NCBI GenBank assembly: GCA_976551045.1
Contig: CDPCPM010000160.1
Coordinates: 1,550,001 to 1,614,000 of the forward strand
Direction: 5' to 3'
Source: Glaucostegus cemiculus
Lineage: Eukaryota
Length of the DNA: 64,000 bases
This document shows, in pieces, positions 16,317 through 41,900 of the stretch. The notes beneath the pieces were generated by a model. It saw only the letters and a program-made list of their open reading frames with translations. It did not search any database and was not told the DNA's origin. Each line of letters starts with the position of its first letter. Position 1 is the stretch's first letter. The position numbers and the translations under genes were made by a program.

Positions 16317-17399
16317 CTAAAACAAATGCACAGTCCGTTTACAGAATGTCACCCAGGATTCTAAACCATATTTCTGTCCCGTCACCAGGCAACTACATCC
16401 ATCTCAATACAGAGAAGCCACTGGAAAACTCAGGCTACCCATTCCCAAATGATCACACCTCAGAACAGAATAAATGGGTATGGAAGCAGCTACATTCAGC
16501 AGACGATAGCCATTTGCACAAACTGCGATGCAATCTGCTCTGCCAGACAAGGTTAGAATTGTCTGGATATCATGCTTGCTGTGAAATCAGCAAGTTCTGG
16601 AGGACAGTGGCCGGTACAACCTTTATCCTGAGGGGGAAGCTGTCGTCATGGTGAAAGTTCACCTGGCAGAGAGGGGGATGTTTCTGCTCGGAAGGAAGGT
16701 GGGGCAACGTTTGCTTTTGCTGCAATCTCCCGACTCTCCAGTGAGGATTACAAACGACTCTTGTGAGTAGAGCATAAAATGGAAAATAGTGAGTTGTGAT
16801 TTCCCTTCTTTTATTCCTGCACCATTCCTGGATTGCTCCCGACCTAACAAAGTAAATGAATTGACCACATAGCCTGCTTTGCATTTAATTAATTTGTGTT
16901 TTGCAACATTGTTTGCAAAATTTTGTCTCTCAACGTCTATAATTCATTCCAAAATCAGTAAGGCCCAACATCAACAACTATGAAACTGCAGGAGAACATT
17001 GAAACCTGTCTAGCTCATTCATAACCTCCAGGAAAACAAGTCAACTGCAGGACCCAATCTGTATCCCTCCGTGACCACAACCGCCCCTCACCTCCAATGT
17101 GGTTTACTGGAACTCTCTTCTGAATCTAGGCTGATTGCACAAGATAATGTTTTCGTCTTCATTTCTCCAGAGGAATCCGACATCACTGCTCGGGCCATCA
17201 TTTCTTGTTCATCCTTAAGTTCTCTGAATCAAATGTCAGCAAAAAGCCACCAACATTGATGAGCCTGAAGCTGTGCTGAGAACAGACATGTTAAGGAGGG
17301 CAAATTTCCTTCCCCGAGGACAATAGTGAACCCAATGTTTGTAACCACTTTCCTGCAAATGCCTGACCTCCACTATGGCCACTGTATGTTATTCCTGTC

Positions 17400-17630
17400 A
17401 CGTCTGTGTGCAGTTAGCAAGTTTTGGATTTGCCCGGGTACTCCTGTTTCCTCCCACATTCAAAAAACGTTCATGTTGATTGATGAACTGGTCAGTGCGA
17501 ATTGTGCACAGTGTGTATCTGAGTGAAGAATCTTGGGATTATACCACTCAGATACGCACTCAGAAAATTGTTGATCGGAATGTGAGGAGAATTAAAAGAT
17601 GGGATTAATGTAGGGTTTGTGTAATGAAAT
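17400..17630 (+). mobile_element. degenerate V-SINE/HE1-like SINE fragment
   Basis: cccgggtactcctgtttcctcccacattcaaaaaacgt core, similar to the 26400 copy. Confidence 0.5.
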
Positions 17631-18190
17631 AAATAAAAGAACGTTCAGGGAAATTCATCAAAATTAATTGAAAACATTGAATATAATTTCGAAACAAGTG
17701 ACTTTGCCATTAAATCAGGATCCAAGGACCTGCATCTGGCGATACTATTTTGGCGCCTTACTTTGAATAGTGAACTTGACAATTGCATTTGATTTGTTTT
17801 AATTTGGGGGTGACACGTTCCTTGGAGTATGGCTTGTCCTCTGGTTGTCTGCCATGTTGAAGGTGGGTTTGAGGGCTGAATTGGAGATTGTTTCCATACC
17901 AATTTACGCACAGATATACTGGAGCAGCCAAAGGTAACTCACAGATATTAATCAAACGGAAAAACGTTCACCTGGACGGGGATCCATGGCCGTGAGGATG
18001 GATTTGATCAATACAGATATTAACATGGCTTGAAAAGGAGAAAACAGAATTTTATCCGTCTCCTCATCGGCCGATTGGTCAAAATATTTTCAGTCGAACC
18101 TCATGCCAGTGAAACCCAATACAATCGCGGAGATATGTTACAATATTTCACACACTGTTAGATCACACAGGCCACCACAGTGGCACTTAC

Positions 18191-18466
18191 AGCGAACGTT
18201 TAGTAGAAATGGATCGCTGGTGTTCGTATTCACCAAGTTGTACGCATCGCAGTTAAATTCCTCGTCCGATCTCAGCACCCCAGAGACAGTCAAGGTGCTG
18301 TTGTTGGAACTTAGGGTTATCCTACCGCCAGCGCTAACCGTCTTGTTGTTCTTAAACCACAGATACGAAACATCCGTTCCTTTTGCTTGGCACGTCAAAC
18401 TAACTGTGTCATTGTATTCTCCGGATTTGGTATCATTGGATGTGATAACGGGCTTAGAAGCAGGTT
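18191..18466 (-). CDS. gene A IgC-like A-type exon (EPASKPVITSNDT...)
   Basis: 276 nt, intact; about 86% aa identity (hand count) to 40932-41207. Confidence 0.93.
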
Positions 18467-21400
18467 CTGATAAAACAAAGTAGATCATGAAATACTTGTC
18501 ACATATTGCGCAGGACGTATCCCCAAAAGATACACAGTATGTCACATGAAGCAACATATTGCTTATTCTGCAAATCATAGATGAAAACAGATATGTTGTA
18601 AATGCTCAATAGACCTGTCAGCGGCGGTGGGGAAGGAATTCTGGTTTAACATTCAGGTGGTCAATTAAGAACTGAACAGTGACGACCACTTGGAGAAACA
18701 TTGCACTTTCATAAACTTGGTGTGAAATAAAGCAAAGTTGCTTATTGCCGTATGCTTGAAAACAATGATAATTCACCATTAAAATAAGCGAGACGCAGGT
18801 GTGAGCAGACCAGAAAAGGGGCTCTGAAACACAATTACGTTACACCTTCAGTTAATAATATCGCAGACAAAACTAAAGTTCGCCACAGGGACGGCAGGAC
18901 TGCTCACCATCCTCGATACATTGCGCATTCTAATCATCATTATTGTAGTCATGGTACAGTATTCTGCTTTGCTCTCAGCTTTGAATATATAATCCCCAGC
19001 AGAATATGACAGTTTCTACAGTTCACAATACTCAGGAAAGTAATCGCAGACATACAAACAAACCTGAGACCCACAGAGTCCGTGTCAATCAAACCATCCA
19101 ACATGAAGCCTCCTGGCCAGATTCATAATTTGCATTGTTTTCATTGTACATGTTGGTGCAATTGGACGATTGAATAGGAACAAGTAATGTTGTGGGTAAT
19201 TCCATGGAGATCATGACTTAATACTTGGTGTTAAATGTCCTCAGCCATTTCTAACAATCAGTGAGCGAGGGAGTAAATGATCCGTCAATGATTGAGAAAA
19301 CTAAAGAAGCATAATTCTGGATCATGGCGCCATCTATCAACTTTCCAGGGTGGAATAAAACCCACATTGCTTTCACATGTTCGGTTTAAAATGTAACCAA
19401 GATGCCATGCATAGTTTGGAAAGTTTGCAATCTCAATCGGAAAACAAATAACCTGAATGACTTCACTTCCACTCCTGTCCTTGGTTTTGGAAATAATTAA
19501 TAAGTGTTGACTGCCTGTGGCTGTTACAGTCAGGCAATGTTTGGAATGTGAGATCACATTTTCCTCTTTCATTGGCAGATTACTATATCCGGCACACGCA
19601 TCATCTGTTTGGCCACAACACTCAAGGTACGTGATATATTTCATTCTCTTTCTCTCTTTACACTATCGTTCCTAATGCCCAGTGAGGGTATCTGTAAAGT
19701 TCTGGTGGTTCTCTGACCCCTTGCGGCCAGCAGCAGCACAAGAGCAATCATAATACATGAATCATTTAAACCCACATCCAGGCATTCCTGCGCACCTGGC
19801 GCGCCGATCATTTTGCAATCACAAAGCTGAGAAACTATTCGGGTGTAAGGACAAAGCAATGGAACGCAGGACATGTAACAACCTGTCTAATGGGAGGATA
19901 TTCTGGCCAGACCACGCACCAAGTTCCACTGCGTCATAACAGTCAGAGCCCCGACAGGAATCCATTCATCCAATCATCTCCGTTCCTGCTGACAAAGAAC
20001 TACTCAGTCTCGCCCCGTTTCACAGTTCACAAACCTACGGACCTGTGTCGGCCCCTGAGATTCAGCCTCATCACTGCGTGTAATATGCTCACATATTCGT
20101 CAAAAGTCCGTCTCCGTCGCAAGGTGTCGCAAGGTACCATAATGTGTAGGTCAGCGGTGGTTTCGGGGGGCGGGGAGTGGTGGGAATGTGGGGACAATAG
20201 AATTGGGTGAATGAAAATAGGTGCTTGGTGTTCAGCACAGACGAGCTAGGCCGAAGGGCCTGTTTCCGTGCTGCATGACTCCATGGCTCTAACCCCCGCC
20301 AAGCTCCTGCCTCAATCCATCCAGCTGAATTTTCTACGAATAGAACAAAATCTTTCAGTGAGCATTTGATTATTCTAACACAGCGGCCATTTCTGTGGGT
20401 CCGAAAGCAAGATTAACTTCCTTAATCTTACTTCACAGTGAAACTTCTGCAATTCCTCCCAATTCTTGTTTGCAACATCCAGTGTTGTCACGTCATTCCT
20501 GCTCCGTGAGGGCCAGAGCTGTACACTGTGTTCCTTCAGTACACTAACTGGTGAATTGCTCAGGTCTGGTGTGACTTTCCCGCTCACACATTCGATGTCA
20601 CAGCGTCATGGAGTTCTGCAGAAACAGGCCATGTTCTGGCCAAAATCTGAAAATCTCTAGTGTGCTTTCAGAACCAATTCCTCCACCTCCCCTCTGCCAT
20701 CTATGGACATGCCCTCCAGGTCCATTCGATCCCAGTTAACAGGAAACACGTAACAGAGATGAGATCTGGGTGAAACGGCCGAATCATGGCGAAAACAAAG
20801 AACTGGCTGACCGAGAAATTGCACCACACCGTTATTTCCAGCGAGAACCAACGTACGTATGACGTTGTTTATAAGTCGAATAAAGAGCTAGAGCATCAAC
20901 AGGCAGATTATCCGAACAGTGTAGTTGGGTTACACGATGCTACCGGGCTCAGACGGACACTGAGCGTCTCTGAACGGGATACCCCACGATACAATCAGGC
21001 GTCTGCACTAACGAGGAAATGTGGCCCTTGAGTGGATAGACGCTGAAGATACGGTGGTGTGTCGGTCCCAGGGGACTATGAACGGACTGATGACTGGCAG
21101 TGCCCAAGGGAGAGAACAGGGTAACATAAAACAGATGCTGCGAAACTAAATTACGAACAGAAAATGCAGGTAATACTCAGCAGATCAGGCAGCAAGGAGG
21201 GTTTACAGGTTTCTGATTATTCGTCAGAACCATAAAGTCAGATACAAGCCTCACGTCAAGAGACCAGGGGTGGAAACGACCAAAGTGTATGTCTGTGATA
21301 GGGCGGAGATCACGGTTGCCTGGGTGACACGAAGCTTTTGGTGCTTTCTTAGAGTGGAAGGTGAACGGTTGCTGATCTCTCTGGAGAAGGGTAATCGGAG

Positions 21401-22560: not shown

Positions 22561-24312
22561 TAGGAGAAATTGTGGCGAGAATCTCTGAAATGAAAGGGAA
22601 TTCTGTAAGCAATTCTGTGGAGAGAGAGAGAAACTGGATTTCGCCTGAAATCGGAACTGACCTGTACTGCCACAAACAGGCAGGCTGTTTATCTGAAATT
22701 GTTGAATACGTTATTGATTCCCCGTGCGGAAGTAAAGGGTGAAGAAACCGTGACTGACTGTAACTGTACATACAACTGATGGAAAACTCCCTCGGAAGCA
22801 AGAGCCCAAAAGCTACTGACTCATGGTGAGGTGATAATTACTATACCCGGAACATTGGATATAGACCAGGTATGCTGGACAATAAAGGTGCTGGGTGCAA
22901 TAATCAATGAGTGAGAAGCTTGCTCTAAACAATGAGGGTGATACCTGTCTTTGAATCTCTTGATTATAAACCAATTATGTTGGACAATATGTACGATGTC
23001 TGTCTTTGGATCTCCGAGGCCTGACCGAAATTTGCGGCGCCGCATTCATTAAGTGTGCATGGCAATACCTGTATAAATTTCCGTCTGATCCTTTGTACGA
23101 AAGAGTCCCCGGGAAGCAATTCTCACGAGTGCTAAAGAGTCCTCTCCTCAGCGGTGTACTTCTAATACACGCGTTTTATTGAATCAACCTGGTGGCACTG
23201 TGTTACTTTGCCGCAGACAGAAGTGGGAACGAAATCGGGACGACACCCGGGGTCTGCAATGAGCAGAGGCGGCTAGTGAGGTTCCACGGAGGGATTGTAC
23301 TGTTTTGTTAGGTATTGGGTGTGATTGGCAAAGACTCTCAGGTCGGCCCGGGGGCGCTACTGCCACGGAGCTGTCAGGGAGAGCTCCCTAAAGCTCTGAG
23401 TGTCTTCTCTGATGCCTGTGTATTGGAGGAAGTCGGACAATCCCTAGTTCCAGACGAACCTACTTCTCCCTGTTCGAAGAGTAGTTCAAGTCAGCTGACC
23501 TTGAACGTGGGGTTCAGCTGCACTGGATAAACTAACGAAGTAATGAGAAGCAGACACGATGAGATATGGCAGAGATCAACTCAGGATCCCGCAATGATGC
23601 AGAGACCAGGACACGAGAGTGCTGGTGATCCGGACCTCCCGCGGAACAGCTTTGAAGACTCGTGTGCGATTGTGTGTTTCAGGGGTGAGTTGGTCACAGA
23701 CCTCAATGAGGGGCTAACTTTGAGATCGGGACCCTCAAATTGCACTGTTTCCATGGTACCGAGGCCATGAAAACCCGGAACCCATGAAAACCGAGTCTTT
23801 GTCAATTTTCAGCTCAATGAGATTGAAACACTCTCCTGGGACTAACATCGGCGATTCGCCTAAGGGACGTCATTTAGCCCACCGCTAAATTTCGCAGAAA
23901 TGTACCGGGTCTTCGGACCGAAATCACGTTGAAATGAGGGGAAGCAGGAGAGCGTAGGATCAAGTGTAACTGGCTGAGGTTCCCTGTTGTTCTCATTTTA
24001 GATATGGCGCAGTCACAGAGAACAGAGAGAGCAGCAGTAAGTGAAGAGGGATCGGCCGGGTTCTCACGGCGCGGGGTTCCGCACCCACAGGAACCCTCTC
24101 CCCGAATCCGACCGGCCGGCCGATACCTGTCCGGAAGGGACCCCAAACTGAATCGAATCCTATCCATTATATGTAATTTCTCGTTCGGAAGGAGTGCAAT
24201 CTCCAACAATTGAGTTGGGTAGAAAAGGTTAAATATATTCATTCACCACAGTAATAAAATGAAAATATAAGTCCGGAAATAAATGACTGAACAAGACCAA
24301 CGTCTCACTCAC

Positions 24313-24630
24313 CAAGGACCCGCAGAGTGATGGTCGCTGAAGCTAAAGAGCCGCTATTTGTAAACACGGTCACAAGATATTCCCCGCTGTCCGATGTGTT
24401 CACCGACTTCAGCAGGAGCGACGCGTTGGAGGTGAATACCTCAGCCCGTGATTGGTACCCACTACCATAGAGCACACTTCCACCGGTCCACTGGGCGACT
24501 GCTTTCCCATTGAAAAACCAGTTCCCACCGGTGATCTCGGCCGACGGCCGCACTGAAAAGAACGCATTTCCTCCGTCGGTCACATTGATCCGGCTCTGTT
24601 CTGCGTTGATGGGAAAAGCCTGAGACTCAC
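24313..24630 (-). CDS. gene A exon 2, Cys-free IgV-like N domain
   Basis: 318 nt, phase 1-1; motifs W..NG and R...NASLLL...DSGEY with no cysteines, as in CEACAM N domains. Confidence 0.93.
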
Positions 24631-24800
24631 CTGAGGAAGAGAAAATCGCGTGAGGGTAAAGCAAAAGAAGCGGATGGACTCCAGAATCTGCACTTAGCTC
24701 AAAAATTAGATCGTCTTTGGGAAGCTCATCTGCTTTTCCAAAACTACCCTCCGCTGTGGTGATTCCTTGTTAACTATCTCTCCGACAGAGTGACCCTCAC

Positions 24801-24852
24801 CCGCAGGTATGAAGAGACAAAGAGCGAGCGCGGTGAGCGGCAGCTCCGCCAT
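24801..24852 (-). CDS. gene A exon 1, signal peptide (MAELPLTALALCLFIPA)
   Basis: gggATGG start context; G|gtgagg donor; near-identical to 29912-29963. Confidence 0.92.
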
Positions 24853-24965
24853 CCCGAGAGAGTAGCGTCTGTGTCTGCCACACTCTGAGACTGAGCCGCG
24901 CTTCCTGGTCTCCGGGCCACATCACTGGAGTCAGTCGTCAGAAGCGGCACCGCTGATTGGACCGG
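24853..24965 (-). promoter_or_regulatory. TATA-less proximal promoter/5' UTR of gene A with CCAAT box (24956-24960) and ETS-like CAGGAAG
   Basis: Conserved with 29800-29911; similarity stops just upstream of the CCAAT box. Confidence 0.6.
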
Positions 24966-25119
24966 CTGCTGCCTGCCTGCAGCGTAGGCAGAGAAGGAAG
25001 TAAAGTAAAACTGAGAAGGACCACTCGGCCCCTCGTACATATTCCATCATGCTGTACCATCACATGTGACCTTTTGTCAGCACCACTTCCCTGCACTAAA
25101 CTCTAAAGGAGAGAAGGGG

Positions 25120-25750
25120 TATCAACTTCCTTTTCCAGGGTGGAAATGTCTGATGCCAGAGGGCACGGGTTTATAGAACATAGAATATAGAAAAGCTGCA
25201 GCACAATTCAGCCCCTTCGGCCCACAAAGCTGTGCTGAACATGTCCGTGCACTAGAAATTACTGGGCATTCCATAGACCTCTATTTTACTAAGCTCCATG
25301 TAACAGTCTCTTGAATGACCCTATCGTATTCGCCTTCACCACCGTTGCCTGCAGCCCATTCCACGCACTCACCACTCTCTGAGTAAAACATTTACCCCAC
25401 ATATCTCCTCTATATCTACTCCCAAGCACCTTAAACCTATGTCCTCTTGTGTCCACAATTTCAGCCCTGGGGAAAAGCCACTATCTACCCGATCAATACC
25501 TCTCTATGGTGAAAGGGGGGACGTTTGAAGGAGACGTAGGAGGCAAGTGAGTGGGTGGGTGTCTGGAACGCGCTACCGGCGGTGCAAGCATTTGGGCAGG
25601 CAACTGAGCATTCAGAGAATGGAGGGATATGGACCATCCGCATGCAGATGAGATTATTTTAAATTGACACCCTGCAAGCACAAACAAGGTGGGCTGAAGG
25701 GCCTGGTCCCGTGCTGTACTGTTCTATGTCCTGCATTCTACGTTCTATTT
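25120..25750. mobile_element. nested CR1 3' ends in opposite orientations
   Basis: atagaacatagaa tail with minus-strand CR1 3' UTR (about 25170-25505) interrupting a plus-strand CR1 3' end that finishes tgttctatgtcc. Confidence 0.6.
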
Positions 25751-26399
25751 TTTACCGCTTGATTCTTCACGGTCCAGACATCCTCTTCTTGATCTCTCAG
25801 AGACTGACTCACTGTAACCATCTTTGGATTGTTCTAAATATTCACCAGCATCTGGTTGGATGAACAATTTTATTCTCGTCTCCACACTCGTGCAGTCATA
25901 GATCTGAAACGACTTTTAATCTCACACACAAAAATAACTTATTTCAACTCTCTGTCGTTCTTGTTTGTTTTCAATAATAGTCAGCCCACGCGGGAATATT
26001 ACACATTCTAGTGCTCTAATTATGTGCAAAAACCCTGTGCAGGACCTTGTCAACTATGTTCTGTCGGAACAAATACATCGTATCATCTGGTTCGTCCTTA
26101 AATATTCTGCTGGTAACAATCTGGAAAAAATCAGATTTGTCAAGCATGCGTTCTGTCCCATGAATCTATTTTGACATTGACCTACTGTGGTATTATTTTC
26201 TCAGTGTCAATGAGAGACTCTTGCATCTCCCTAGACCTTGATGCCAGTCTAACCTCTCCCGATTTCTCTTTTTTGTTCTCTTCCTCCTTTCTGATATAGC
26301 AATGTTACCTTTCCTACTTTCCAATCTGTGGGGATTTTTCTGAACTCTGAGGAATTTAGGAAAAGGACAACCCATGTGTCCACTTCCTCCATTGTCATC

Positions 26400-26690
26400 G
26401 TGAGGCGGTTAGTGTAACGTTATTACAGCGCTAGCGACCCGGGTTCAATTCCAGCCGCTGAAGAGTTTGTACGTTCTCCCCGTGTCCACGTGGGTTTCCT
26501 CCGGGTGCTCCGGCTTCCTCCCCCATTCCAAAAGAAGTACATGTTAGCAGTTGAGGGCATACTATGTTGGCTCCGGAAGCGTGGCGACACTTGCGGCCTA
26601 CCCAGCACATTCTCAGCAACACGAACAGACGCATTTCATTACTTGTTTCGATGTACATGTGACTAATAAATAAATATCTTTTCTTATCTC
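26400..26690 (+). mobile_element. tRNA-derived V-SINE/HE1-like SINE
   Basis: Box B gggttcaattcc; central gttctccccgtgtccacgtgggtttcctccgggtgctccggcttcctccc; AT-rich tail. Confidence 0.8.
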
Positions 26691-27984
26691 TTTTAAAACA
26701 TCCGTTCCATGTCACCAGATCCTGAAAATAAACTTTTAAATTAACTGATGTTCATTTCTTTAGATCCTGTTTTTTTTTTCTCCACACCTGTTCCCCACCA
26801 CAGTGTGGATTGTTCTTCCTCCTTCCCTGAAGACACACGACAATATTCGTTTACCTCCTCGGCCATTTCCTTATTCTTATATATAGTTTAGAGCTTCCGT
26901 CTGCAAAACACCGGCGATTAACTCTTGCTGTTCCATTTCATGTTTATCTTTGGAGAAATTCCTTCGGTAGGACTCGTAGGTGAATGCAGATTATGTGGAT
27001 TGGGAATCTACCGAACAATAATGGGAGAGGGATTTTCCATTTTCACTGCCGTGTCTCTCTAAGCGGGACATGGGAACGCTCTAAGTAAATGAGTTCTGGT
27101 TCAATCCTCCACCTCTATTTTCACCCTCTTCCATCTCTATGACAGCTGCCCTTTCTCTGCTTTATTTCCCAACATCTGCATTCCCAAATACCCAATCTGT
27201 CAATATCGTCAGTTTGCTTCTACTACTTTCAGTTCTATGGACTGAGGTTGTTGTTTTGTACGGTTTCGCCCACTGAAATGTGGGGAATATATTGGCCTTT
27301 GAAGCCGTCCATTCAACCAGACGTCAGACCCTGATCTTCCACACTGTCTCATCTCTCGGTCCTCAATGCCCCTCCCCCCATTGAGTACCAGATTCCAGAA
27401 GGATTAACAGGGCGGGCGGGTACGGAGAGGTTATTTCCTCTGCGCTGTGGGGTGTGAAACCAGGGGAGGCTGTCTCAGAATAAAAGCTGTCCATTTAATA
27501 CAGTGATTAGGATGCTTTTATTCTCCAGAGGACTGTGAATCTTTGACATTCTGATCCAGGATGCAGCGAATATTCAGTCTCAGAGTGCAAAGTTTTTAGA
27601 TAGGGTAAGTCTTGATTATGGACTCTTAAGGATTCCGGAGATTGCAGGCGACGTGCGAGATCGGACTTGACCCGTCTGAAAGGCGGAGCCGGCTCGAAGA
27701 TTCGTGTGGTCTGCAGTTACCCACATGACCCCAGGTCCACGGATGCCAAACCACACTCCTGTAGTAACAGGCCTACGCCTGTGCTCTGCGCTGTTGCACT
27801 TTCGACCACACATTTGAAAGCAGCTGTTACAGTGTTGGTAACAGGTGTGCAGTTGTGCCTCTCCCTAGAAATGCCCACCTGCTGAATGTCTGAGCAGTGG
27901 AGCATCCTGACACAGGAATACCCTTCCCTAGATATAGGAAAGTTAATGTAGACTTTAAAGGAGGAGGCATCAAAATTGTTATTA

Positions 27985-28215
27985 ATTTATTTATTGGTAT
28001 TGGTATTGGATTATTATTGTCACATACCGAGGTACAGTGAAAAGCTTGTCTTCCAAACCAATCGTACAGGTCAACTCATTACACAGTGCAGTTACATTGA
28101 GTTAAAAGAGTGCATTGGTGTAGTACAGGTAAAAATAATAGCAGTACAGAGTAAAGAGTCACAGGTACAGAGAAAGAGCAGTGCAATAAGGTGCAAGGTC
28201 GCAACAAGTTAGATC
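27985..28215 (-). mobile_element. 3' end of a retroelement, same family as 9300-9635
   Basis: ttattggtattggtattggattattattgtcacataccgaggtacagtgaaaag matches the reverse complement of the 9300-9635 end. Confidence 0.55.
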
Positions 28216-29532
28216 GTGAAGAATATATAGCATGATTTTCCTTTGCATTTCGGGGATGCTCTAAATATATCATCCACAAAGAAAGATGGTGCAGGGAACA
28301 GACATTTGCAGCTTCCGAACCTTGGGTCAACTGTTGATAAATCGCTGACAAAGGGAGAAGCTCAGAACACCAGGGAAATGCGCAGTTCCGTGGCTTCTTT
28401 CACCTTCATTTCCAGAATCCAGAGTCGGAGAGGAATAACAAAGATTTCCTTCAGATTGTTATAGGATTCTAACGGCCATAACACGGCCACAGTCTCAACA
28501 ACTTAACCTTGAGTTTCTGATGATACATTAATGAACATTTCCTTTGTAGAAAGAAATGTGAAGTGTTAATGCTGGTGTTCAAGAGGATTTGGATGCACAT
28601 GTGTGGGGTACACGGGTGTTTAACATGAAGCTATAGTGTGCACTGAGGAGAAAGGTTATGGTGGCCTTTATGACAAACGCTTTGGAGACTCAGGGTACGA
28701 AATCCTGTTGAAACTGCGCAGGGTTTCGGCGAAAGTGGACATGATGTCCAACGTACAATCAACCAAAGGTAGGACAGACATGCCTTGAGGTTTCCCGCCG
28801 ACCGATGACCAATGAGGATGTGCCGAATCTGAGAGTCCTCAAAGAGATGTATATGAATGCTGAGGGTAATTGGAGGGCAGATGCTGAAAATGTTGATGCC
28901 ACTTTCCTATTTCCCATATTCGAAACCCTGGAATCGCGTAATGGGCCATCAATAAGATCGGGAAACACTGGAACGTGGAACAGAACGTGTGGTTCCTCCA
29001 CTCCGCTCCGCTCGGCAATAAGATAACGGCTAATCTGATCTTGGTCACACCTCAATTCCAGTCGGTCCCCATCAGTCGCAACCTCGGATGTCCAACCACA
29101 TGTCTGTGTCGGCTGTGAATATTGTACACTCAGTGACCCCACCTTCAAAGCTCGCCGAGGTAGAGAAGTCAAAAGGTTGACCATCCTCGTTGAGTACAAA
29201 CACCTCATCGTCTGCATGTTAATTGCGTGACCACTTACTCTGAAATTCTTCCCCGTGCGAGATATCCTCGCTCGTATCCTCTCTGACAGCACCAACCAAC
29301 CAAAACCCACTCCGGACTTTACAAGAATAGCACACAGCCAAGATATAGTTTGGGTGCAGTATTTTTATTCTCGGTTTTCTTTGGACGTGGAGTTCGGGTA
29401 CACGTGCGGCAAACGGGAAGCAGAGATGCGAAGGTGGTCAAACACCAAAGTCGGGGAGGAGGGTGATGCTCACGTTGTTGGTAAATTGTGAGTAGGCTTC
29501 CCCAGAAAGATGAGGGTCTGAAATGATCACCA

Positions 29533-29716
29533 TGTGTGTGAGTGCCTGTGTGTGTGTGTGTGTCTGTCTGTCCGTCTCTGTCTGTATCTGAGTGGCTGTG
29601 TCTGTGTATGTGTCTGTGTTTGTATGTTTGTGTCTGTTTATGTCTATCTGAGTTTTGCGTGTGTATGTGTGTGTGTGTGTCTGTCTGTCTGTGTTCATCT
29701 GTGTCGGTGTCTGGGT
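29533..29716. repeat. compound (TG)n/(TCTG)n microsatellite
   Basis: Directly visible TG/TCTG repeats. Confidence 0.9.
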
Positions 29717-29799
29717 GAGATTTTCTCTATTTCTGTTGCAGACAATTTGCAAGTGATTTTGATTCGCTGGAAATTCTTCGCTATCAGCTGAGCGAGGAC

Positions 29800-29911
29800 C
29801 GGACCAATCAGCGCTGCAGCTTCTGACGACTGACTCCAGTGATTTGGCCCGGAGACCAGGAAGCGCGGCTCAGTCTCCGAGTGTAACAAACACAGGCGCT
29901 GCTCTCTCGGG
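29800..29911 (+). promoter_or_regulatory. TATA-less proximal promoter/5' UTR of gene B with CCAAT box (29804-29808) and ETS-like CAGGAAG
   Basis: Inverted near-copy of 24853-24965. Confidence 0.6.
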
Positions 29912-29963
29912 ATGGAGGGGCTGCCGCTCACCGCGCTCGCTCTTTGTCTCTTCATACCTGCGG
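29912..29963 (+). CDS. gene B exon 1, signal peptide (MEGLPLTALALCLFIPA)
   Basis: gggATGG start; G|gtgagg donor. Confidence 0.93.
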
Positions 29964-32900
29964 GTGAGGGTCACTCTGTCGGAGAGATAGTTAACAAGGA
30001 ATCACAGCGGCGGAGGGTTGTGGAAAAGCGTATGAGCTTCCCAGAAACGATCTAATATTGAGCTAAGTGCAGATTCTGGAGTCTCTCCGCTTCTTTCGCT
30101 TTTCCCTCACACGAATTTTTCTTCCTCAGGTGAGTCACAGTTTACCATCCACGCAGAACACAGCCGGATCAATGTGACCGAAGGAGGAAATGCGTTCTTT
30201 TCAGTGCGGCCGACGGCCGAGTTCGCCGGTGGAAACTGGGGTTTCGATGGGAAAACAGTCGTCCAGTGGACGGATACAAAACCGTTCTATGGTAGTGGGT
30301 ACCAATCACGGGCTGAGCTGTTCACCTCCAACGGGTCGCTCCTACTGAAGATGGTGAACACCTTGGACAGCGGAGAGTACACTGTGACCATGTTTACACA
30401 TAGCGGCTCTTTAGCTTCAGCGACCGTCACTCTGCGCATCACTGGTGAGTGAGACATTGGTCGTGTTTAATCATTTCTTTGTGACTGCTGCTCTCATTTT
30501 AAGTTGGTGGTGAATGAATCTAATTTAATCATTCCTGTCCAACTCACTTGTCCTTACACTGTAAGTGTGCAACAGCTTACAGGCTGTTACATGGTCGCAG
30601 TGTAACTTGGTGAAGGAGGTATTTTTCCGGTCTGGAATTTGTAAATAAAGAGTAAGGCCGGTCTACCTTCGATTCATTTTCGGATATCTCTCGGGCAGGC
30701 ATCTGCCGTCTGGTAAACTACAGACAGAGGATGCATGTGGGGTGGGACACGGTGCCGTGTTTCTCTGCCTCAGCCTCCCTTTCACCTCACTCTTCCATCG
30801 CATGACAATGCTAGTGTTTACCACGCGATAAAAGGGAACTGCATTTTGATCCAGGAGTTAAATCAGTGTCCCCAGTTTTCCAGGGGGAGTCTGTGGAGAG
30901 AATATAAGCAGCAGGAGGGTTTCAGGTCGATGCCATTTCATCAGATAGTGAGTTGAGAAGTCAATGATATCCCATCGGACCAGGGGCTTTCCTCCTGCCT
31001 GTGATCGGCGCTCCCGGATCTTCTTGAAAGGAAAGATGTAGACCCTATTGCAACAAACGGCGGGACTTCCGGGCCTCATGACCTGCATCACCACGAGACA
31101 AGGTGGATTTGGCCTAATGACTTGTCCTTGGGTCTAGAAACTATTATTTATCACAGAGGGGTTGATGCACACTGCTACTGGAGCAGGGTCAGGAGTTCCG
31201 AAAACTTAAAATGCTCTACCGGAAGTTTTACTCCAATGGCCTGTGCCTGATGCATGTACAAATGATATGTTAGCAGAGCACAATAGTTTTTGATACAAGT
31301 TGTTTTAATTCACAAAGTGTATTTCTTTTGCTTTGAACTAACGGCGTGGAATGGAGATTTCAGTGGCTCAATTGCCTTAGAAAGTTGTTGATAACATTGG
31401 AGCGCCGGACTGTTATGTGCTTTACATTTTAACTGTCTGTCTCTTATCTTACGCCTTCCCAATACATGTTCAGAATTCAGTGCAGATGACGCTATTCTTT
31501 AACAGATCTACAGGTGGACTTCCTGATATTAAAGTGATTATTTGTATCCTTTGCACACCTCTTCAGTGTCGCTACTTTATCTACTTCACCTGACAAAACA
31601 AAGAGAGATACTGGGGTGCATTAGCAATACAGACTGTGGTTTAAAAGTTGTCCATACATTTCATTGTTGATTTGGAGCTAAAGATTAGGGATCAAGCGTA
31701 GACCTTCACCCTGCCCAGCCTTCTGAGTTATGTTTGTGGTAATAGATTTCCTTATTACGTGAGTTACTTTTAACACCAGCACATATCTCAATAGAGTCAT
31801 ATAGTCATACAGCACGGAAACAGGCCCTTCGGCCCACTGCGTACTTGCCCGCCATCAAGCACCCATTTCCACGTAATGTATTATTCTCCACATTCCCATC
31901 AACTCCCTCCAGACTCGACTGCTCGCCTACACCCTAGGGACAAATTGCAGTGGCCATTTAGCGAACCATTTTTTTGCGGATATTGGAACCATTTTGTTCC
32001 AAGGCTGCACATAACCAAGCAATGAAGATGACCGTTTATTGATTAAGGACAGGGAATTCGTTCCAGTTCTTTTGTATAAACAGGCAGAAACTTGGGCTTT
32101 CCTCTTTCCTCCATGACGCGGTCCAGACGACAGATCTCCCTGCTGACAGGTCAAAGCATTCAGAAGACTTGAAACAATGAGACACCCCACAGAATACCTT
32201 TGTTTCAGTTTTCTCACGCTTGGTTTGTAAATGTAAAGAGTAAAGCAGGTTGGGACATAACCAGAATTGTACGGACACAATTATACATTAGTTATAGTTG
32301 GTGTCTCTGCTGTCATCTCTGCACATGTTACTTTGATTGATGAGGTTGTAAATGGGTAGGAGCCGGTTTCATGGTATTTAGAAAGTTTTTATCAAGGTCG
32401 CAATAGCAGGTGTGATCCCCTCCATTCCAACAAGTTTTCGCTGGCTGTCATATTGATGCTGAAAGCCAGTCAGATTCAGTGTGTCGTAACCCGTCCAATT
32501 ACGTGGCAGCAACGGAAACGAACCTTGGCATTCCCTTTGGAAAGCAAATGTGCACCTGCTGTGTTAATATAATATTTAAGATCTGAACAACTGGTTGCGT
32601 TTAGATAGTTTCTATCATGTTCTAACTTATTCTCTGGTACCCATGGGAATTTTATGAAACAAAATTTGGAACCAGGATAATATGGGGCAGACGGCAGACG
32701 GCTTGGGCCAAAGGGAGATTTGAATGGGAGGAAGATGGGGAGGGGATGGAGATGGAGGGAGAGTGTCAGTGTGGACGGGATTACAACAACAAACAGTTGA
32801 CTGCTGCTTCCAGCAGAAATTAAAAACTAGATACATGAAAGGAAAGGAATAATCTCCTTTCGTGTGTTGGCGGTTGTAGATTAGAATCCGGAAGTGAAAC

Positions 32901-35900
32901 ATGTCCATTCATAACTCGTCGCAATTCCCAAGTTTAGACTGGTGTGGCAATGGGATGGGGAAGAGTTCCTGGGACATACCTGGCTCCGTCAGGTTTTATC
33001 TCCTTTGAAGTTGAGAAATATTGTGAAGCCACACATGAGTGAACCTTCAACTGAGTGACTGGAGATAGAACAGTGAAATCTCTGGTCACTACGTTAAACA
33101 ATAGATGTTCTCCAGAGAGAGTAGCAAGTCACCAATTACACTCCCAGCAAAGGCCCATAGGCAGCTCACACATCCATGACCCACGGTCAGACACAACACG
33201 ATCCCATTTCCAACGGCCGGGACCAGCAGTGCGAGGCCCGTTGTTTAAGGCGAGAATCTCATCTGCCCTCTGCATTTAAATAAAACTTTGCCACACTGCG
33301 CAGAACCAGACCATTCGACCCATCAATCCATGTCTGAACCTACACCAATCCACTTTAATTCTCTCCAGGTTCCCGACAATTCCTCCACGATTCTAGCACT
33401 CGGCTTAGCAGCAGGAAAATTTAGAGCAGCTAAATTCTGCTCCACTTCTGCTCCATAATTACCCGAGTGGAGGAGGAAGAATGGAGGAGCAGGTCATTGT
33501 TTAACTGGAGAGAGACAGCGGAGATCTGGGTGTCCGACTGCATGAAGCACTGGGAAGTTAGCGTAGACGTAGATAAGAATCAATGTTGTCGTCGTTGCAA
33601 AGGCGATGAATATGAATGGAGACAACTGGATAGACAATGGGTGAGATCATAGCTGCACGACTGCATGTAGTCCCTCTCTCTCTCTGTGCCTCTCTGTGCC
33701 TATCTGTCTTGCTGAATGTTGTCCTGCTGAGAGTGAGCGGGGTGCTCCCTGCTCCACTACCGAACAAGAGAAAAATGACTCCTCACTTTGCAAGAGTTAT
33801 ATTTTGCGTCATGTTCCAGTTATGGTTCTGCAACAGACAGAGCCCCGATATTGCAGAGGACAGACAAGTGGCTGGATCTGAAACCATCGAGGATACAGGA
33901 AGAAAGGTCAGCTCTGTAGAAAAAAAATAGATGGGAGATGCAAGCTCAACGGTTTAGAAATTGAACAGTGTTGCTGCCTCGAGTGACCTTTGTGTCGGTG
34001 TACACAAATCAATGAAATGTAACGTGCAGGTTCTCCGAACAATTAGGATGTAAATATTTAGCCCATACGTAACTGATACACAAATAAATCCCCTGACCTT
34101 TATTACAAAAGGGTCTGTGTATGAATGATACCATTTTCCAACTATATCGAGCCCTGATGAGAGAGCACTTTGGATATGGGGTTATCTACAAGTAGGGACA
34201 GGGTTTCAGAACAAGAGATCACGCTTTTAAGACTGAGGTGAGGAGTACTTTATAGCATTATTTCTCCGATATTTACTATTTATTTTAATGATACCGAGGA
34301 GGGGTGAATTCTCAGGTACTTTTTGTTTATCGTTAACACGAAAATAGTTGGATGGCACGTTCACATGAGGACACTGTGCCCCATCAACAATATATGAACA
34401 GATTGATTCAGTGGGCAAAACCCGGTCACAAAGAGTTTAATATGGGGAAGTGTGATGTCATGCACTTCAGTGAGTGGAATCCAAGGGCACACTATTAACT
34501 GAATGGAAAGATATTGCAAATGAGTGATGTACGAGGGATCCCAACGGAGCTTTGGCAAGAATCACAAGAACTTTGAAGGCAGCTGCAGCAAGTAGTTAAG
34601 GAGGCAACTAGTGTATTGGCACTTATTGCGGTGGGATTCAGAAATGGGAGGTTTGTTCCAGTTCTGCACGGTGTTGCTGAGGCCACTTCTGGAATGCTGT
34701 GCAGTTTTTTCCACTTACCGAAGAAGCGACACAATCGAGTTTGAGCGAGTCCAAAAGTGATTCCCAGAATAATTTATGCGATGAGAGGATTGTCCATTTA
34801 GAGAGACTCAACAGGTTTGGTCTGTATTCCTAGAATGTGGAAGAATTAGGTTCTCCTCTGAGGGCGGGGAACTTCATGACTTCTCTCCCCTAGACAGCTG
34901 CAGAAGCAGAAATATGGAGTTTATCCCAGGCCACCATTCCCAGACAATGAAAATACAAGAGAGTCGAACAGTATACCGAGAGGGCGGTAAATTTGTGTGA
35001 GGACAAGACTGGATCAACCATGATCTGAGTGATTTTTGGAGCGAGCTTCTTTAATTGGTCACATGTGGCCCCTGAATCGAGCTCGTAAACAGTTCTTGGT
35101 GTTTTCTCTTCGTTAACTAATTACTAGTGTGCAATCTCAGAGCACTATTTTGCGTCTGTTCAATAACTCATTTCGGATGTTAGTTGCTTCTTTTTGTTCA
35201 GGTGACTCGTTTAATTCCGCTTTTCATGTCATAAAACTCTCCTTTTCTCAACCTGACACAGCACACAAACTGTTACCGCGCCGTTCCATATTCCACTTGT
35301 CTTGCATTCATAAATCAAAAAGAAACAGAACCAAGATTCTCAAATACCAACTGATGTACTAATTACCTCTGTCACGCTCCTCTGCATCATAAGACACCAG
35401 TGATCGTTCCTTTCCTGTATTTTGACAGAAGCCATTTCTAAGCCCACCATCTCAGCCAATAACACTCATCCCGTAGAGCACAACGATGCAGTTGCTCTAA
35501 CGTGCGATGCCACTGGGTCACCAACCTCATTTGAATGGTTTCATCGAAATGAAACAATTCGCTCCGGGGATAGGACCGCCCTGACTCAGGGCAATAAAAC
35601 CCTCGTCATATCGGGAGTGTTGCGGACTGATGGAGAATTTGTGTGCCGAGTGTCTGATGCTTACAATGAAAAGAGAAGTGATCCATATAATCTGAATGTT
35701 GCCTGTAAGTGTAAAAACAAACTCCGCAAGCATTCGTTAATTATTACCAAACCTACGGAAAGTACTGGAAGGGAAGTTTTTCACTTTCTGTTTGTTTGAT
35801 CTGAATCAGATATCTGACACGAAATTTGTAAAAACGTACATGGCGTCATGGTTACATGTTAAACCGTGCACGTCTGAGCAATGTAGGTTTGGTAATGCCT

Positions 35901-38900
35901 GGGGAAGCTGACAGATAGGACGATGATCAAGGATTATGTTTCTTTGATTCCCTATCAATCACCTTGCCCAGGACAGAGTTTCCTTGGAAATGCTTTTCTT
36001 GGGTACATCAAACAAAGCTTTGTATCCACACCTCCAAGAAATTAGCGATTACAGCAGGTCGCTGTTGAAACAGACAATTTTAATTAGCAAAATTTGCAAT
36101 GCAAAGTTTACAAAGAATCAAATTCGAAAAATGGGATTAATGTTGAAGAAAGCTTTGTTTTCCATGAAATATTTAGGTTTAAGATTCGTTGCAAATTTAG
36201 TTTAGTTCAATTCTATGCATTGCACAGCTGGTAAATTGCATGATTTTACTGGCTTAATGGGGCGTGGGTGGCTCGTAGTTCGGTCGCACTCCGAGTTTTG
36301 CGTCATATTTGAACCAACCAATGCGTTTATTTTAGATGGACTGGAATCTCTAATCGTATCAATCAGCCCAGAGCTTGCTTTATATCCTGCGGGATCAAAT
36401 GTAACTTTTTCCTGTTCCACTGTTTCAAACCCCGCTGCTCAGTTTCAGTGGAATCGCAATAATTCAACACATCAGAAAAGCGGGAATCAGCTAATCATTG
36501 CAGACCTGTCCTTGAATCACACTGGCAATTACACTTGCAAAGCTTTCAACTCGATAACACAGAAATCCAGTGTGACAACAAGGTTCATTGTTGTTATAGG
36601 TAGGTGAAGAAGAAGGTGAGGGCTCCCTCCTTACTTATGGTGGCTGTTGTTGTGTTAGCTGCAAGATTAGCAGTAGATGTAGAGGAAATTGTGCGACATT
36701 GCGTCTGTTGGCGTTGTTGCTAAAATCTACTATTCTTGTTTTTAAATGTTGATTTCAGTTGTGAAGTTTTAGTTCATTTGCATTTTGTTCTATTTCTTCC
36801 TGTTTTCTTTGTAAAAACGTGGACGTTTGTATCAGGCAACTGATCTTCGCACTCAGACCTGAAGTTAAGAAGCAACTTACGTAGTTCTTTTTATGAACTT
36901 CATTGTGGGGAAATGGGATCTTAGCGCCAACGTTTGAGACCAAAGAAAAGCAGTGAATTCGTGGCAGGATTGTGTCCAATTCTAATCGGGGCACGGCTGG
37001 ATCAATGTGGACATTTATGGTCTCTGCACAACAGGAAGAATCTGACACCTCTGGAGAAGATGCAAGAGGTCTGACGCAGCCGCGGTCTGGTCCAGAAATT
37101 TATCATTCCAAGAATATCGGGCTGTAGTAGCTTTTTGAAGCAATACAGTCAATACAGCTGCATAAAATTATATACCGTATGATCGTTAACGAAATCGTGC
37201 CCCATGTGCATCCTGTGAAGCCTTCCCGCACTCGTGCGGATAAACTCTACCTGTCATCTTTCTGCCCATGTCCGTAACTGATCTATATTTTGCTTTATCC
37301 TTTGGCAACCTTCTTCACAGTTCACAATTCGAGAATTTGTTTAGTCTCCAAACCTACTGATCAGCCCGTCTACTTTTTCGTCGAAGTCACTTCTACAACA
37401 GGGGTTCCAATACGGACCCTGCGCAACACCACTGGTCACAGACCTCCAGCCAGAACAAACACCCTCCACCACTTCCCTCTGTCTTCTATGGCCAAGAAAA
37501 TGTTGAATCGATTCTACGAAGTCAAGGTGGACCCCGTGGGCCTTAATCTTCTGGAACGGGCTGCCTTGTCTAATGCCTCACGGAAACCCATGCAGGCAAC
37601 ATCCACTGCCCTACCCTCATCGATGGTCTTCGCCATCTCCTCAAAGAACTCAATCAACTTCGGAAGGTTATGACCAGCACAGCACAAAGCCTAGCTGACA
37701 CTGCCCAAACGACCCATGCTCTTCCAAATGCCAATAAAACACTTGCCTAAAATTCTTCTCAAAGAGCTTCCCTCCAATTGATCCGAGTCTCACTGATCTA
37801 TCATTTCCCCTACTGTCGCCTGCTGCACTTTTCAAACAAAGGGACAACTTTAGTTACTCTCCAGCCCTCTGGGACCTCGCCTGGGGTGAGAGTGGACACG
37901 AAAGTATAAGTCAGCGCCCCAGTAGTCTACACTCTCGCCTTTTTTAATAACCTGGGATGGATCCCATCAGGGCCTGGGGACATCCGTATGAATGTTCTTC
38001 AAGAGACTCAACACCACCTCGTTGGTCACATGACCATGCCCTGGAAACTTCGCATACCCCTCCCTGATCTCACTGTCCTCCACGCCCTTCTCCTGATCCC
38101 AAGTACTCATGTAGTGCCTCACACACTTCCTCTGGTTGCAGGCTCGGATTCATTCCGTTGTCCAGAAGTTCTCCTACCATCTCCTGGGCTACTTTATTCT
38201 TAATGCATGTACAAAGGGACAAAGGATATTCCAAAATCCTATTTTAAAAATGATATTTCGTGGTCATTTTTGGCCTAGTTCTTGCAAGAAAGAGTTCTTT
38301 CTTGCTTTCCTTTTATTCCTTAAGGGCAATGTCTGATTTCAGAGGCCTGTTGAATATTCCAGGCTATTTTACGACGGATGAGCGCACAATGGCCAAACAA
38401 CAGTGCTAACAGACCAAGCAAGCTACGCACACTGGCGATGCAGCTTTGGTTTGACGTGTTACGAGCCACTCCAGGCACGCAGCGTCCTCGGGATTTCAAG
38501 GTGAGAGCGGCTGACGCACAGTACGGCAGAAGTTGGCGAAAGACGAGATCCAGATAGGCAGTAGAAACTTGGCTCAGCATCCTTCATATTTAACATAGAA
38601 GAGTGTAGCACAGGAACCGTTCCGCCCGCGATGTTGTGCCGAACTAAAATACTCAGGGGGGAAAAAGCTGATTGTCAAAGGCAGTGAATTAATTCTGGGA
38701 TATCACAAAAGGAGATTATCGGGGCCGAATTCCCAGATAACGACCATCAAAGGATTTCGCCTCGATGAAACATTTCAAAATGAAAATGGATGTTTTCAAA
38801 TCAATGTCAGTGTTTAGGAACTAATATATGAAATAGTGATTGTAGCTGAAATCTGTTACCTGATAAAAATGAATGCTCTTTAAAATTTGGAAAGCACCAT

Positions 38901-41900
38901 TTCTGTTGGAGATGGTGATCCCAGTCCTCTGGAGAACACGGATCCCAAGCAAATCCGACCACTCAGCCCTGTTGATCCGAAGCCACTGCTGGATGCGACC
39001 GTGTTTCTGGGTTTCGACCAGGAGGTCGGATGCGGTCGCCGCTAATCAGCGGGTTCCAGACTTCCGCGGCCCCCAACGCGCGCGACGGAAATCACAACCG
39101 CCTGGAGCTGCGGGAAATACCTCGGGAAACCTCTGTTGCAAATCAACCCCACAGGGGATGCACCCACCCAGTCAGTGTGCCGATATTATCTAAGACACAG
39201 CCATGTTCAGAGTGTACTAGACATCCCATGTTACATGGGGCGAGCACTGAGCTCTCAGAACTGCAAAGCTCAGGAAGCTCTGTTAAGGTCTTGTGCTTCA
39301 AAATCCCCGTCTCTGGCCTCATATCCGTGTGCGCAGATCAGCAGTGACTTCCGCAGTCGCTGCAACATGCATTCGGCCACAGTGAACACTAACTGGTCGC
39401 TGGTAGATAAGGCGGAGGCGTGAGCGTGGCTGATGTTTGCCCATGACCAGTGCGTCTAGAGCCAGGGGCCGCAATAACAGGACAGAGATGAGGAAATGTT
39501 TCATCAGGTCACAGTGAGGCGCAGTACGGAGACAGGACCTTCAGCACACTGTTCCTTCACTAACCCATTTACATCCCCCTCCCCTCCCATCAGCTCCCTC
39601 CAGAATCTACCAGCGGCAGTTTACAGTTGCCAATTCATCTCTCAGCCCGCACATTTTTAGGAGGAACCCGGACACAGGCGGAACTTGCAACCCCAAAACA
39701 CAGCTAATAGCGGAGGTCAGGATTGGACCCGGGTCTCTGTAGCTGTGAGGGTACCCATATCCCTGCCGAAGATAGTGAGGCTTTGATACTCCCGACACGT
39801 GTGGCCTGGAGTCTCAGTCGCTGAATATATTCAAGAGATTTTGCTGGCATTTTTGGGGTAAATGTGAAAGACCCGACATGATCTGATGGCAAAGCAGAAT
39901 CGACGGGCCAAATAGCCTGCACGTACTTCTAATTCTTCTGTCCTAATCCTCCATAAAACATCCATCAACTCATTTGACACATTGCTCGCCATCCTGACGG
40001 GGCGAAATTCATTTAATTCCATCTCACGTCAAGTCTTCGGGATCACAACCCCTGTCTCCCGATAATTAGTCATGGACAAAAGTTAGATAGGTTTCTCACA
40101 ATCACTTTCACACCATCTCCCATATCTTCCCAATGCAAAATACGAAACGTAACCGATCACCCGAACGCTTTACTGCATTGTACTCATTTATGTTCACTTT
40201 CAATGCATTTACCTTTTCCTTTACAACTAATTAGTTTCAGTTGGCCAGAACTAATTAGACTGGGACCAGCGGGGCCAGTTTTGGGACCCACATTGTCGGC
40301 ATGGGAGATTGTCTTCCGAGAAGTGCCGATCGCATTTATCAGGTTAATACGGGGATTGCAGGGGTTCAATAGTGAGGAGAGTTTCCACACACCAGGACTG
40401 AATCTCGGGGAATGCAAGCTGACCCGTGTTTTGGGTTCAAGGATTAAAATGATTCCCGCTGCTTGAGAGTCTGAGACCGGTGGTTAGAATCTGGAATTGA
40501 ACCCTGGTTTCGGCAGTGGGGTTTGGGAACGCTTCTCCATACACACAGGAGGGAAATAATTGGGGTTTCTCGCAAGCGAAGGGCAGTAGATGCCTTTCAG
40601 CAAAGCTGGGAAAGGTTGAAGATTGTAGAAAAGTAATGTTAAGATGCAGAGAGAGGTGGTTAAGATGCAGAGAGAGGTGAGGGAAGGGAGATGAGAGAAA
40701 AGGGGAAGAGCTGCGATCTGGAGTGCAGGGAGGTGCAGCCGAAATAAAAGTTTTCCCGTGTTTCATTCTCCACCGCCGCTGACTGGTCGTTCAGTATTTC
40801 ATTCATTCTCTGGGTTCACCTCAGATTCCGCATCTCCAGTGTTACGCTTTCTATAAGACGTGTATTCTCTCAGGGATATAATTGCTGCGCATTACGTTTC
40901 AAGTAATTTACTATCTGCTGTGTTTTAACAGAACCTGTATCTAAGCCCGTTATCACATCCAATGACACCGACCCCGTAGAATACAATGACACTGTTAGTT
41001 TGACGTGCCACGCAAGAGGGACGGATGTTTCGTATCTGTGGTTTATGAACAATACGACAGTTAGCGCTGGCGGTAGGATAACCCTGAGTTCCAACAACAG
41101 CACCTTGACTATCTCTGGGGTGCTGAGATCGGACGAGGAATTCACCTGCGTTGCGTACAACTTGGTGAATAAAAACACCAGCGATCCATTTCTACTGAGC
41201 GTTCGCTGTAAGTGCAACTGTGGTGGCCCGTTTGATCTCATTAACGTTTAACATTTCATTGTCCGTTACAATGTATCATAACGCTGCGAGGTTGTACTGG
41301 ATTTCACTGGCATGAGGTTCGATTGAACAAAGTTAACCAATAATCCCATTGGTCTATGGGCAGCGGGGTATATACTACCGTTCCTCTTCAGAGTCAGTTT
41401 AAAATTTGTATCGATCAAACCAAACCTCACGACCCATTGCCCATGGATCCCAGTCCAGCTGAGCTTCTCCCATTTTCTTTAACATCTCTGGGTCTCCTTT
41501 CCCTGCCCCAGTAAGAAAGAACTTTAGTCGGTATGGAAACAATCTCTATTGCAGCCCTCAAGCCTTCCGACAACAGAAATACAACCTCTGCTCTATGGAA
41601 CCTGTCGGCAAAACACAAGTGCATTGTCAAACTGACTTAGCAACTTAGCTGACCAAATGTTGCTGTGCTTAGAAATGATATAACGTCAATTTCACCCTCG
41701 TATACTTATCAAACTGAACATATGGAGATGGAGTCCGTTATTTTTCCCTTGGGGTCCAATTGTTGCAGTGATGCGTAGCATTCCTTCATGGTACCATAAA
41801 CCATCGAATCTTCGCTATCCTAATATTTCCACCGCAATTTCTGGGATCAGCCAGAGTTTACCGTTTCGTAAATAGTGGTATTGAACTGGGGATGGTGTAG

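Follow-up and report, generated by a model that had tools for sequence, protein, structure and literature searches.

Conversion and later divergence of N domains in a head-to-head pair of CEACAM-like genes from the ray Glaucostegus cemiculus

Two genes, A and B, assigned below to the CEACAM family, lie head to head in a 64,000-nucleotide stretch of DNA from the ray Glaucostegus cemiculus (assembly GCA_976551045.1, contig CDPCPM010000160.1, positions 1,550,001 to 1,614,000 of the forward strand; hereafter the window, in whose coordinates all positions are given). Their N exons, at 24313..24630 in gene A (−) and 30130..30444 in gene B (+), were placed correctly by an earlier note made from the sequence alone, which read the differences between them as pathogen-driven diversifying selection on the ligand face. 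The question that this locus raises is whether the N domains diverged under such selection or for some other reason. The comparisons described here indicate that the 5′ ends of two old duplicates were homogenised and that their N domains then diverged anew, with an excess of changes in the C, C′ and C″ strands. Selection is not proved by the two sequences alone.

An old gene pair with homogenised 5′ ends

Comparison of the window with itself shows a whole-gene inverted duplication, with gene A on the minus strand, gene B on the plus strand and their starts about 5 kb apart. It contains only two N exons, and nothing was recognised in the window besides the two genes. The duplication appears to be older than the split between sawfishes and stingrays, because the distal exons of A and B have different sawfish orthologs and because of the tree of A4, the fourth A-type IgC exon. 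Exons A3, A4, transmembrane (TM) and tail of gene A match smalltooth sawfish protein P0017 at 77–100%, and those of gene B match sawfish P0016 at 78–93%. In the A4 tree, gene A groups with stingray genes (84/88), and gene B falls in a separate starred group with sawfish B-type genes.

Alignments and trees show that homogenisation of the segment comprising the leader, intron 1 and N exon postdates the divergence from the sawfish lineage. The homogenised tract runs from the 5′ flank to the start of intron 2, at 24206..24965 (−) in gene A and 29799..30551 (+) in gene B, with 86% identity over 761 columns. Differences between the genes amount to 4–10% in the 5′ flank, leader and intron 1 and to about 12% at the synonymous sites of the N exon, whereas five intron stretches beside IgC exons differ by 22–30%. 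The high similarity of the signal exon and intron 1, already pointed out in the earlier note, amounts to 2 mismatches in the 52 bases of the leader (24801..24852 (−) in gene A, with an ATG, a signal peptide and 82% identity to sawfish leaders; 29912..29963 (+) in gene B) and 16 in 166 positions of intron 1, compared with 332 in 1422 in the IgC-flanking introns (p = 1.7e-5 for the introns). Synonymous divergence (dS) is 0.12–0.14 for the N exon against 0.61–0.80 for A4 and 0.47–0.57 for B4, the fourth B-type IgC exon (p = 2e-6). A GT-rich simple repeat at 29540–29700, about 200 bases upstream of the gene B leader, sits just beyond the edge of the tract and has no counterpart at gene A. Exon A2 (18191–18466 (−) and 40932–41207 (+)) forms a second homogenised tract, with 91% identity between the genes compared with 78% in the adjoining intron.

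Both N domains are only 69–74% identical to all three sawfish N domains. The N tree joins A with B with support of 99/87 in the alignment of 50 rows and 87/90, unstarred, in that of 12 rows, and throughout the tree N domains cluster by lineage and not by orthology. In approximately unbiased tests, run under a simpler model that rejects falsely more often, a grouping of the A domain with that of P0017 was rejected (p = 0.001), and a grouping of the B domain with that of P0016 was weakly rejected (p = 0.045). The N exon has undergone gene conversion between oppositely oriented genes.

Divergence of the N domains and its explanations

The explanation that we favour, with some reserve and largely by analogy, is that A and B are CEACAM3-like activating or decoy receptors subject to conversion and to adhesin-driven diversification of the ligand face. 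They are an old head-to-head duplicate pair, whose inverted arrangement would let the 5′ ends pair in a loop and convert. [quoted passage not shown] After homogenisation the N domains diverged again, with the excess in C–C′–C″ and mostly on intact gene B; microbial adhesins that bind the CC′C″FG face would have selected the local changes. A and B could then recognise different adhesin variants, signal uptake through their tails, and act as uptake receptors or decoys for inhibitory CEACAM1. The steps of loop pairing and adhesin selection are drawn from literature on mammals, frogs and reptiles (PMC8860441, PMC5112662, PMC13278318), and the pathogen cause of the A/B divergence is only inferred.

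The 104 aligned codons of the N exons contain 26 replacement and 9 synonymous-only differences and one codon indel, exactly as counted before; these comprise 33 nonsynonymous and 10 synonymous nucleotide changes and leave the domains 75% identical. The predominance of amino-acid changes had been taken as a sign of selection, which is not borne out. In a neutral simulation that placed 43 random changes on exon B and kept the 1174 stop-free of 5000 draws, the means were 28.4 replacement and 9.0 synonymous codons, which puts the observed 26:9 at chance level. The excess of replacements is by itself weak evidence of selection. Homologs were available as protein only, so DNA rates come from the A/B pair alone. 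The pairwise dN/dS of the N exon is 1.13–1.37, varying with transition weight, with bootstrap intervals from 0.55–2.87 to 0.68–3.49, compared with 0.56–0.72 for pooled IgC exons A2, A3, A4 and B4. Constraint on the N exon is weaker than is typical of Ig exons, and a rate above neutral is not established.

The position of the changes is more informative than their number. The faces of the domain were assigned by combining DSSP strands, the alternation of residues about the core and an alignment made with HMMER against human CEACAM1, rather than by solvent accessibility, and the C′–C″ register is uncertain by one or two residues. On this basis 11 of 23 codons differ in the C, C′ and C″ strands (gene B codons 31–53, 30222..30290 (+); gene A counterpart 24467..24535 (−)), compared with 15 of 81 elsewhere (one-sided p = 0.006). 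The densest block described in the earlier note is present (12 differences in 26 codons), and its assignment to C–C′–C″ is supported by the strand model and the CEACAM1 alignment. At codons 48–52 of gene B, in the C′–C″ turn and C″ (30273..30287 (+)), all five codons differ. The accompanying claim of further changes in the F strand fails, since F–FG–G differs at 3 of 15 codons (p = 0.78); C–C″ and F–FG–G together contain 14 of 38 against 12 of 66 (p = 0.031). Clustering on the ligand face thus holds for the C–C″ strands and not for the F–G strands, and it depends on codons 48–52.

Across the CC′C″FG strands, the proportion of nonsynonymous sites that differ (pN) is 0.226, compared with a synonymous proportion (pS) of 0.067 in the same strands (p = 0.042) and a pooled neutral value of 0.103 from N synonymous sites and intron 1 (p = 0.005). 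A comparison set of 48 further, distinct N domains was drawn from 28 proteins, after 10 duplicates had been removed from 58 matches. In this set outward CC′FG positions vary much more than outward ABED positions, with mean entropies of 2.28 and 1.06 bits (p = 0.0004), and the sites at which A and B differ belong to the variable ones (p = 0.003); both p values are optimistic, as the sequences are related. Equivalents of the human adhesin-contact residues (PMC8013792), mapped by the HMMER alignment, show no enrichment, with 5 of 15 changed (F29, Y34, Q44, T56 and S93) compared with 21 of 89 positions elsewhere (p = 0.30). A and B agree at the equivalents of S32, A49, Q89, I91, L95 and V96.

Several of these results weigh against adhesin-driven selection. 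The whole-exon dN/dS is indistinguishable from 1, exon A3 alone has a dN/dS of 1.06–1.31, so that the feature is not specific to N, and outside the ligand face pN/pS is still about 0.7, so that weak constraint explains much. When codons 48–52 are left out, the C–C″ excess disappears (6 of 18, p = 0.27; pN 0.17 vs pS 0.155, p = 0.16 vs neutral). The contact equivalents Q89, I91, L95 and V96 are unchanged, the eight site sets were tested one-sided and without correction, and conversion was not limited to the N exon, as A2 was homogenised too. Position-free codon scans with windows of 5–26 codons found no significant clustering (p 0.057–0.43).

Conversion followed by near-neutral drift in a weakly constrained N domain, whose exposed C′–C″ region would be tolerant in any V domain, is an alternative that we consider unlikely though by no means negligible. 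It accounts for the match of 26:9 to the neutral simulation, for a dN/dS interval that spans 1 and for the similar behaviour of A3, and it agrees with the lack of significant clustering when sites are weighted by family variability (p 0.11–0.63). However, the face pN of 0.226 lies above the neutral level for its tract, which is unexpected from drift alone, and the N domain of intact gene B diverges from its ortholog faster than the constant domains do: identity to the sawfish ortholog is 71% in N and 81–87% in the constant domains, with 30 of 103 residues different in N and 53 of 353 in A3–B4 (p = 0.002). The corresponding figures for gene A are 30 of 105 and 47 of 269 (p = 0.02). Part of this gap between N and the constant domains is due to conversion, which replaced the orthologous N.

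The dense block may also have arisen in a single event, either a tract copied into B from a paralog or a multi-nucleotide mutation, in which case the count of eight substitutions would overstate selection; this we regard as improbable. The nucleotide scan does find 8 changes in 13 bases (p = 0.008) and 9 in 15 (p = 0.002), four of the five codons are derived on B, the C–C″ excess is gone without the block, and domain shuffling is reported in primates (PMC8860441). However, no donor was found among the 48 homologous N domains or in the window, and all eight changes are replacements. A surviving in-frame patch may itself be selected, which would make such an event compatible with adhesin-driven diversification.

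When the 26 replacements are polarised on four sawfish N domains, 11 are derived on B and 6 on A; the other nine are unpolarised, four having both states in sawfish and five having neither. In the N tree the end branch of B measures 0.26 and that of A 0.15. The variable sites are thus not confined to the gene A branch, and because more derived changes lie on intact B, the decay of gene A fails to account for the pattern; this largely removes the confounder that the earlier note had raised, relaxed selection in gene A. It is very unlikely that relaxed selection in a dying gene A, with at least five lesions in its IgC exons but an intact leader, N, A4, TM and tail and fewer changes than B, or host partners binding homophilically or heterophilically at the same face, which is the CEACAM dimer interface (PMC8013792), drive the divergence. 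Pathogen-driven diversifying selection is retained in part: the C–C″ excess, the variability of the face and the branch data favour it, and the neutral-level exon ratio and the concentration in one 15-nucleotide block do not.

Family placement, tails and remaining exons

Membership of genes A and B in the CEACAM family is supported by their cysteine-free V-type N domain, by the alternation of A and B exons and by PDB matches, as the earlier note had supposed. The N exon of gene A encodes 105 amino acids in an open frame (phase 1-1, AG/GT ends), with a Pfam V-set match of E 1.3e-4, under the curated cut-off; that of gene B encodes 104. Cysteine is absent from both, which makes them IgV-like domains without the B–F disulfide. 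The gene B model has V-type strand order with a predicted local distance difference test (pLDDT) score of 95.5. The top PDB sequence matches of the N domain are CEACAM1, and the top five of a PDB profile search include CEA, CEACAM1 (twice) and CEACAM6. Fold alone was dropped as a diagnosis, as Foldseek with the N model gave no CEACAM-specific ranking (PD-L1 first, the CEA N domain ninth). The homolog search gave 28 matches, all of them proteins of sharks or rays, with the best, from smalltooth sawfish, at 69–70%; of 5 candidates in another homolog search, at near lengths, none passed. In the HMMER alignment the ray N domain lacks five CC′ loop residues of human CEACAM1.

At 30332–30334 and 30351–30365 (+) the two N exons show further differences: gene B has Met at position 74, where 47 of 48 aligned homologs have Ser, and lacks one of the three N-glycosylation sequons of gene A, which in turn has Ala at position 68, usually Gly. 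Many shark and ray CEACAM models (P0001–P0006, P0008–P0015, P0029–P0033) contain 2–6 tandem N domains, often with an ITAM-type tail (for immunoreceptor tyrosine-based activation motif) and no IgC domain. Six DNA sequencing runs of one other organism share a fraction of 0.05–0.06 of the words. Of six runs aligned at 80% likeness, four came from a related species; they gave 2–3 contigs at most of the intron 2 sites listed and 3–8 at those listed in intron 1 and the N exon, with a summed depth about 10x higher over the leader and N exon. This pattern hints at several paralogs and gives no copy number.

Each gene has four cytoplasmic exons; the second carries a YxN motif, and a phase-0 intron interrupts YxxL-x7-YxxL. 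This is the architecture of activating CEACAM tails in marsupials (PMC2832619) and Xenopus (PMC5112662), for which the spacing is YxxL-x6-8-YxxL and the phase-0 intron divides the first motif. The tails of A and B are accordingly ITAM-like, of the CEACAM3 type, and predicted to be activating. The tail of gene A is 90–100% identical to that of sawfish. Sawfish P0018, stingray P0023, horn shark P0005 and sawshark P0009 carry a different tail, whose TEYAxV and TDYAxL motifs fit ITSM and the inhibitory motif ITIM. N domains of ITAM and ITSM genes within one species are 89% identical in sawfish and 94–98% in sawshark, and the gene B IgC exons A2–A4 are 85–91% identical to the ITSM gene P0018. The tails and the conversion shift the interpretation from a receptor that escapes to activating or decoy receptors that track.

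The activating assignment has points against it as well. Asn, not Asp or Glu, stands three residues before the first Tyr in both tails, so that they are ITAM-like and not canonical; eutherian members also lack the acidic residue there (PMC2832619). The second motif also fits the ITIM consensus, N domains of stingray ITAM and ITSM genes are only 76–79% identical, and no inhibitory ITIM/ITSM partner gene was found in the 64,000-nucleotide window. An ITIM reading of the tails, suggested by a match to SxYxxL, was rejected because of Tyr spacing, exon phase and the different P0018-type tail.

Gene B (+) has eight alternating IgC exons after the leader and N exons, all of phase 1 and all intact, in a region spanning 35429..53466: A1 35429–35704, B1 36336–36599, A2 40932–41207, B2 43007–43270, A3 44997–45272, B3 46814–47074, A4 52846–53121 and B4 53209–53466. 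The splice from leader to TM is stop-free. The TM and tail region (56841..60556) comprises the TM exon at 56841–56967 and cytoplasmic exons at 58206–58255, 59427–59491 (with YxN), 60161–60199 and 60513–60556, with YxxL-x7-YxxL divided between the last two. After the last ITAM exon, at 60557–60563 (+), GA replaces the GT donor of gene A; with this donor lost, read-through stops two codons on and the motif stays whole.

The IgC region of gene A (−, 7549..19623) is an eroded counterpart of these eight exons. A2 (18191–18466), A3 (10978–11250) and A4 (7888–8163) are intact. Only a 3′ piece of A1 is left, near 19623, B1 was not found in the region, B2 (16054–16316) is one base short, B3 (10348–10607) is one base short with a CG acceptor, and B4 (7549–7806) has lost its first Cys. 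The lesions all lie in A1 and the B-type exons and were read from the assembly, with assembly error a possible source of the frameshifts. The TM and tail region (1276..6905) contains the TM exon at 6782–6905 and four intact cytoplasmic exons at 5055–5110, 4554–4618, 1615–1656 and 1276–1319, with 88–100% identity to sawfish P0017.

Because junctions between A-type exons of gene A create stop codons, only its short forms are open; 8 of 32 exon combinations tried stay stop-free, including N-TM, N-A4-TM and N-A4-B4-TM. ITAM genes with N-TM and N-A4-TM layouts are annotated in stingrays, the latter being that of P0020, P0022 and P0047. Judging from its exons, gene A is probably being reduced to a short form with N, one or two IgC domains and TM instead of dying.

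Intron 2 of both genes contains a short interspersed repeat (31790–31930 (+), 20137–20291 (−)) that is very high-copy, with tens of thousands of contigs in reads of a related species. Several repeat fragments in other introns are presumably CR1-like.

Known receptor systems and significance

Conversion and diversification of CEACAM N domains are already published for mammals, frogs and reptiles. The paired Ceacam receptors of Xenopus (Zimmermann and Kammerer 2016, PMC5112662) resemble A and B in their opposite orientation, N-exon conversion, replacements that pile up in CC′C″FG after conversion, YxN motif and ITAM-like YxxL motif split in phase 0, and the group 1 N domains of Xenopus are described there as nearest to the CEACAMs of fish. 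They differ in that the converted pairs are ITIM with ITAM at 80–93% N identity, whereas both ray genes are ITAM-type at 75%. Human CEACAM3 and CEACAM1, with the shuffling seen in primates (PMC8860441), share with the ray genes N domains that group by lineage, an ITAM-like tail and a fast-evolving adhesin face. However, CEACAM3 has a single N domain and gene B has eight IgC domains, and adhesin binding has been shown in primates, whereas the ray genes are known here from sequence only.

Marsupial ITAM genes related to CEACAM1 likewise have four cytoplasmic exons, a YxN motif in exon 2 and phase-0-split YxxL-x7-YxxL, although their motif is canonical (ExxY) where the rays have Asn; in dog, the converted tract also takes in the leader and intron 1 (PMC2832619). 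Candidate CEACAM decoys of turtles and crocodiles (PMC13278318, a preprint) were identified by four indirect criteria, namely dN/dS, endocytic-motif genes, inverted arrangement and conversion, three of which are found here or in sawfish. Those genes have 0–2 IgC domains, unlike the ray genes, and their dN/dS above 1 is between orthologs of several species, whereas ours is from one paralog pair. In smalltooth sawfish the orthologs of B and A, by A3, A4, TM and tail, are the RefSeq CEACAM-like models P0016 and P0017, which carry automatic names only and whose N domains are only 71% identical to those of the window.

A CEACAM-type N domain without a signal peptide (residues 5–108) also fronts gene models of NACHT-LRR (NLR) proteins, P0025/P0174 in Hemitrygon akajei and P0026/P0180 in Mobula birostris. 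The two N domains are sisters (100/99) and 84% identical, Mobula lists four accessions for each isoform, and the close NLR relatives P0173, P0175 and P0179 have no N domain. By their sequence these models resemble an integrated decoy or could be a shared gene-model fusion, and the combination is mentioned neither in the literature searched nor in the available part of PMC8455134.

A wider picture, bold and doubtful at present, would give sharks and rays a full CEACAM1/CEACAM3-type receptor–decoy system, with the four-exon YxN and ITAM tail inherited from the earliest jawed vertebrates, with A and B as decoys tuned to different adhesins by conversion and micro-patch changes, and with the same N module captured in stingrays at the front of a cytosolic NACHT-LRR protein, where it would serve as an integrated decoy like those of plant NLRs.

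Among the top listings of a literature search that covered subscription papers thinly, none dealt with pairing or conversion of CEACAMs in cartilaginous fish or analysed their tails; there were only mentions that CEACAM genes exist there. One skate expressed sequence tag is reported (PMC4079198), and unpublished ITIM/ITSM genes in fishes are cited by PMC2832619. The process is known, and its occurrence in rays appears to be undescribed. If confirmed, adhesin-driven diversification of A and B would extend the conflict between CEACAMs and adhesins, together with activating decoys, back to the earliest divergence within the jawed vertebrates, and the ray N domains would be named proteins with which marine bacterial adhesins may be found.

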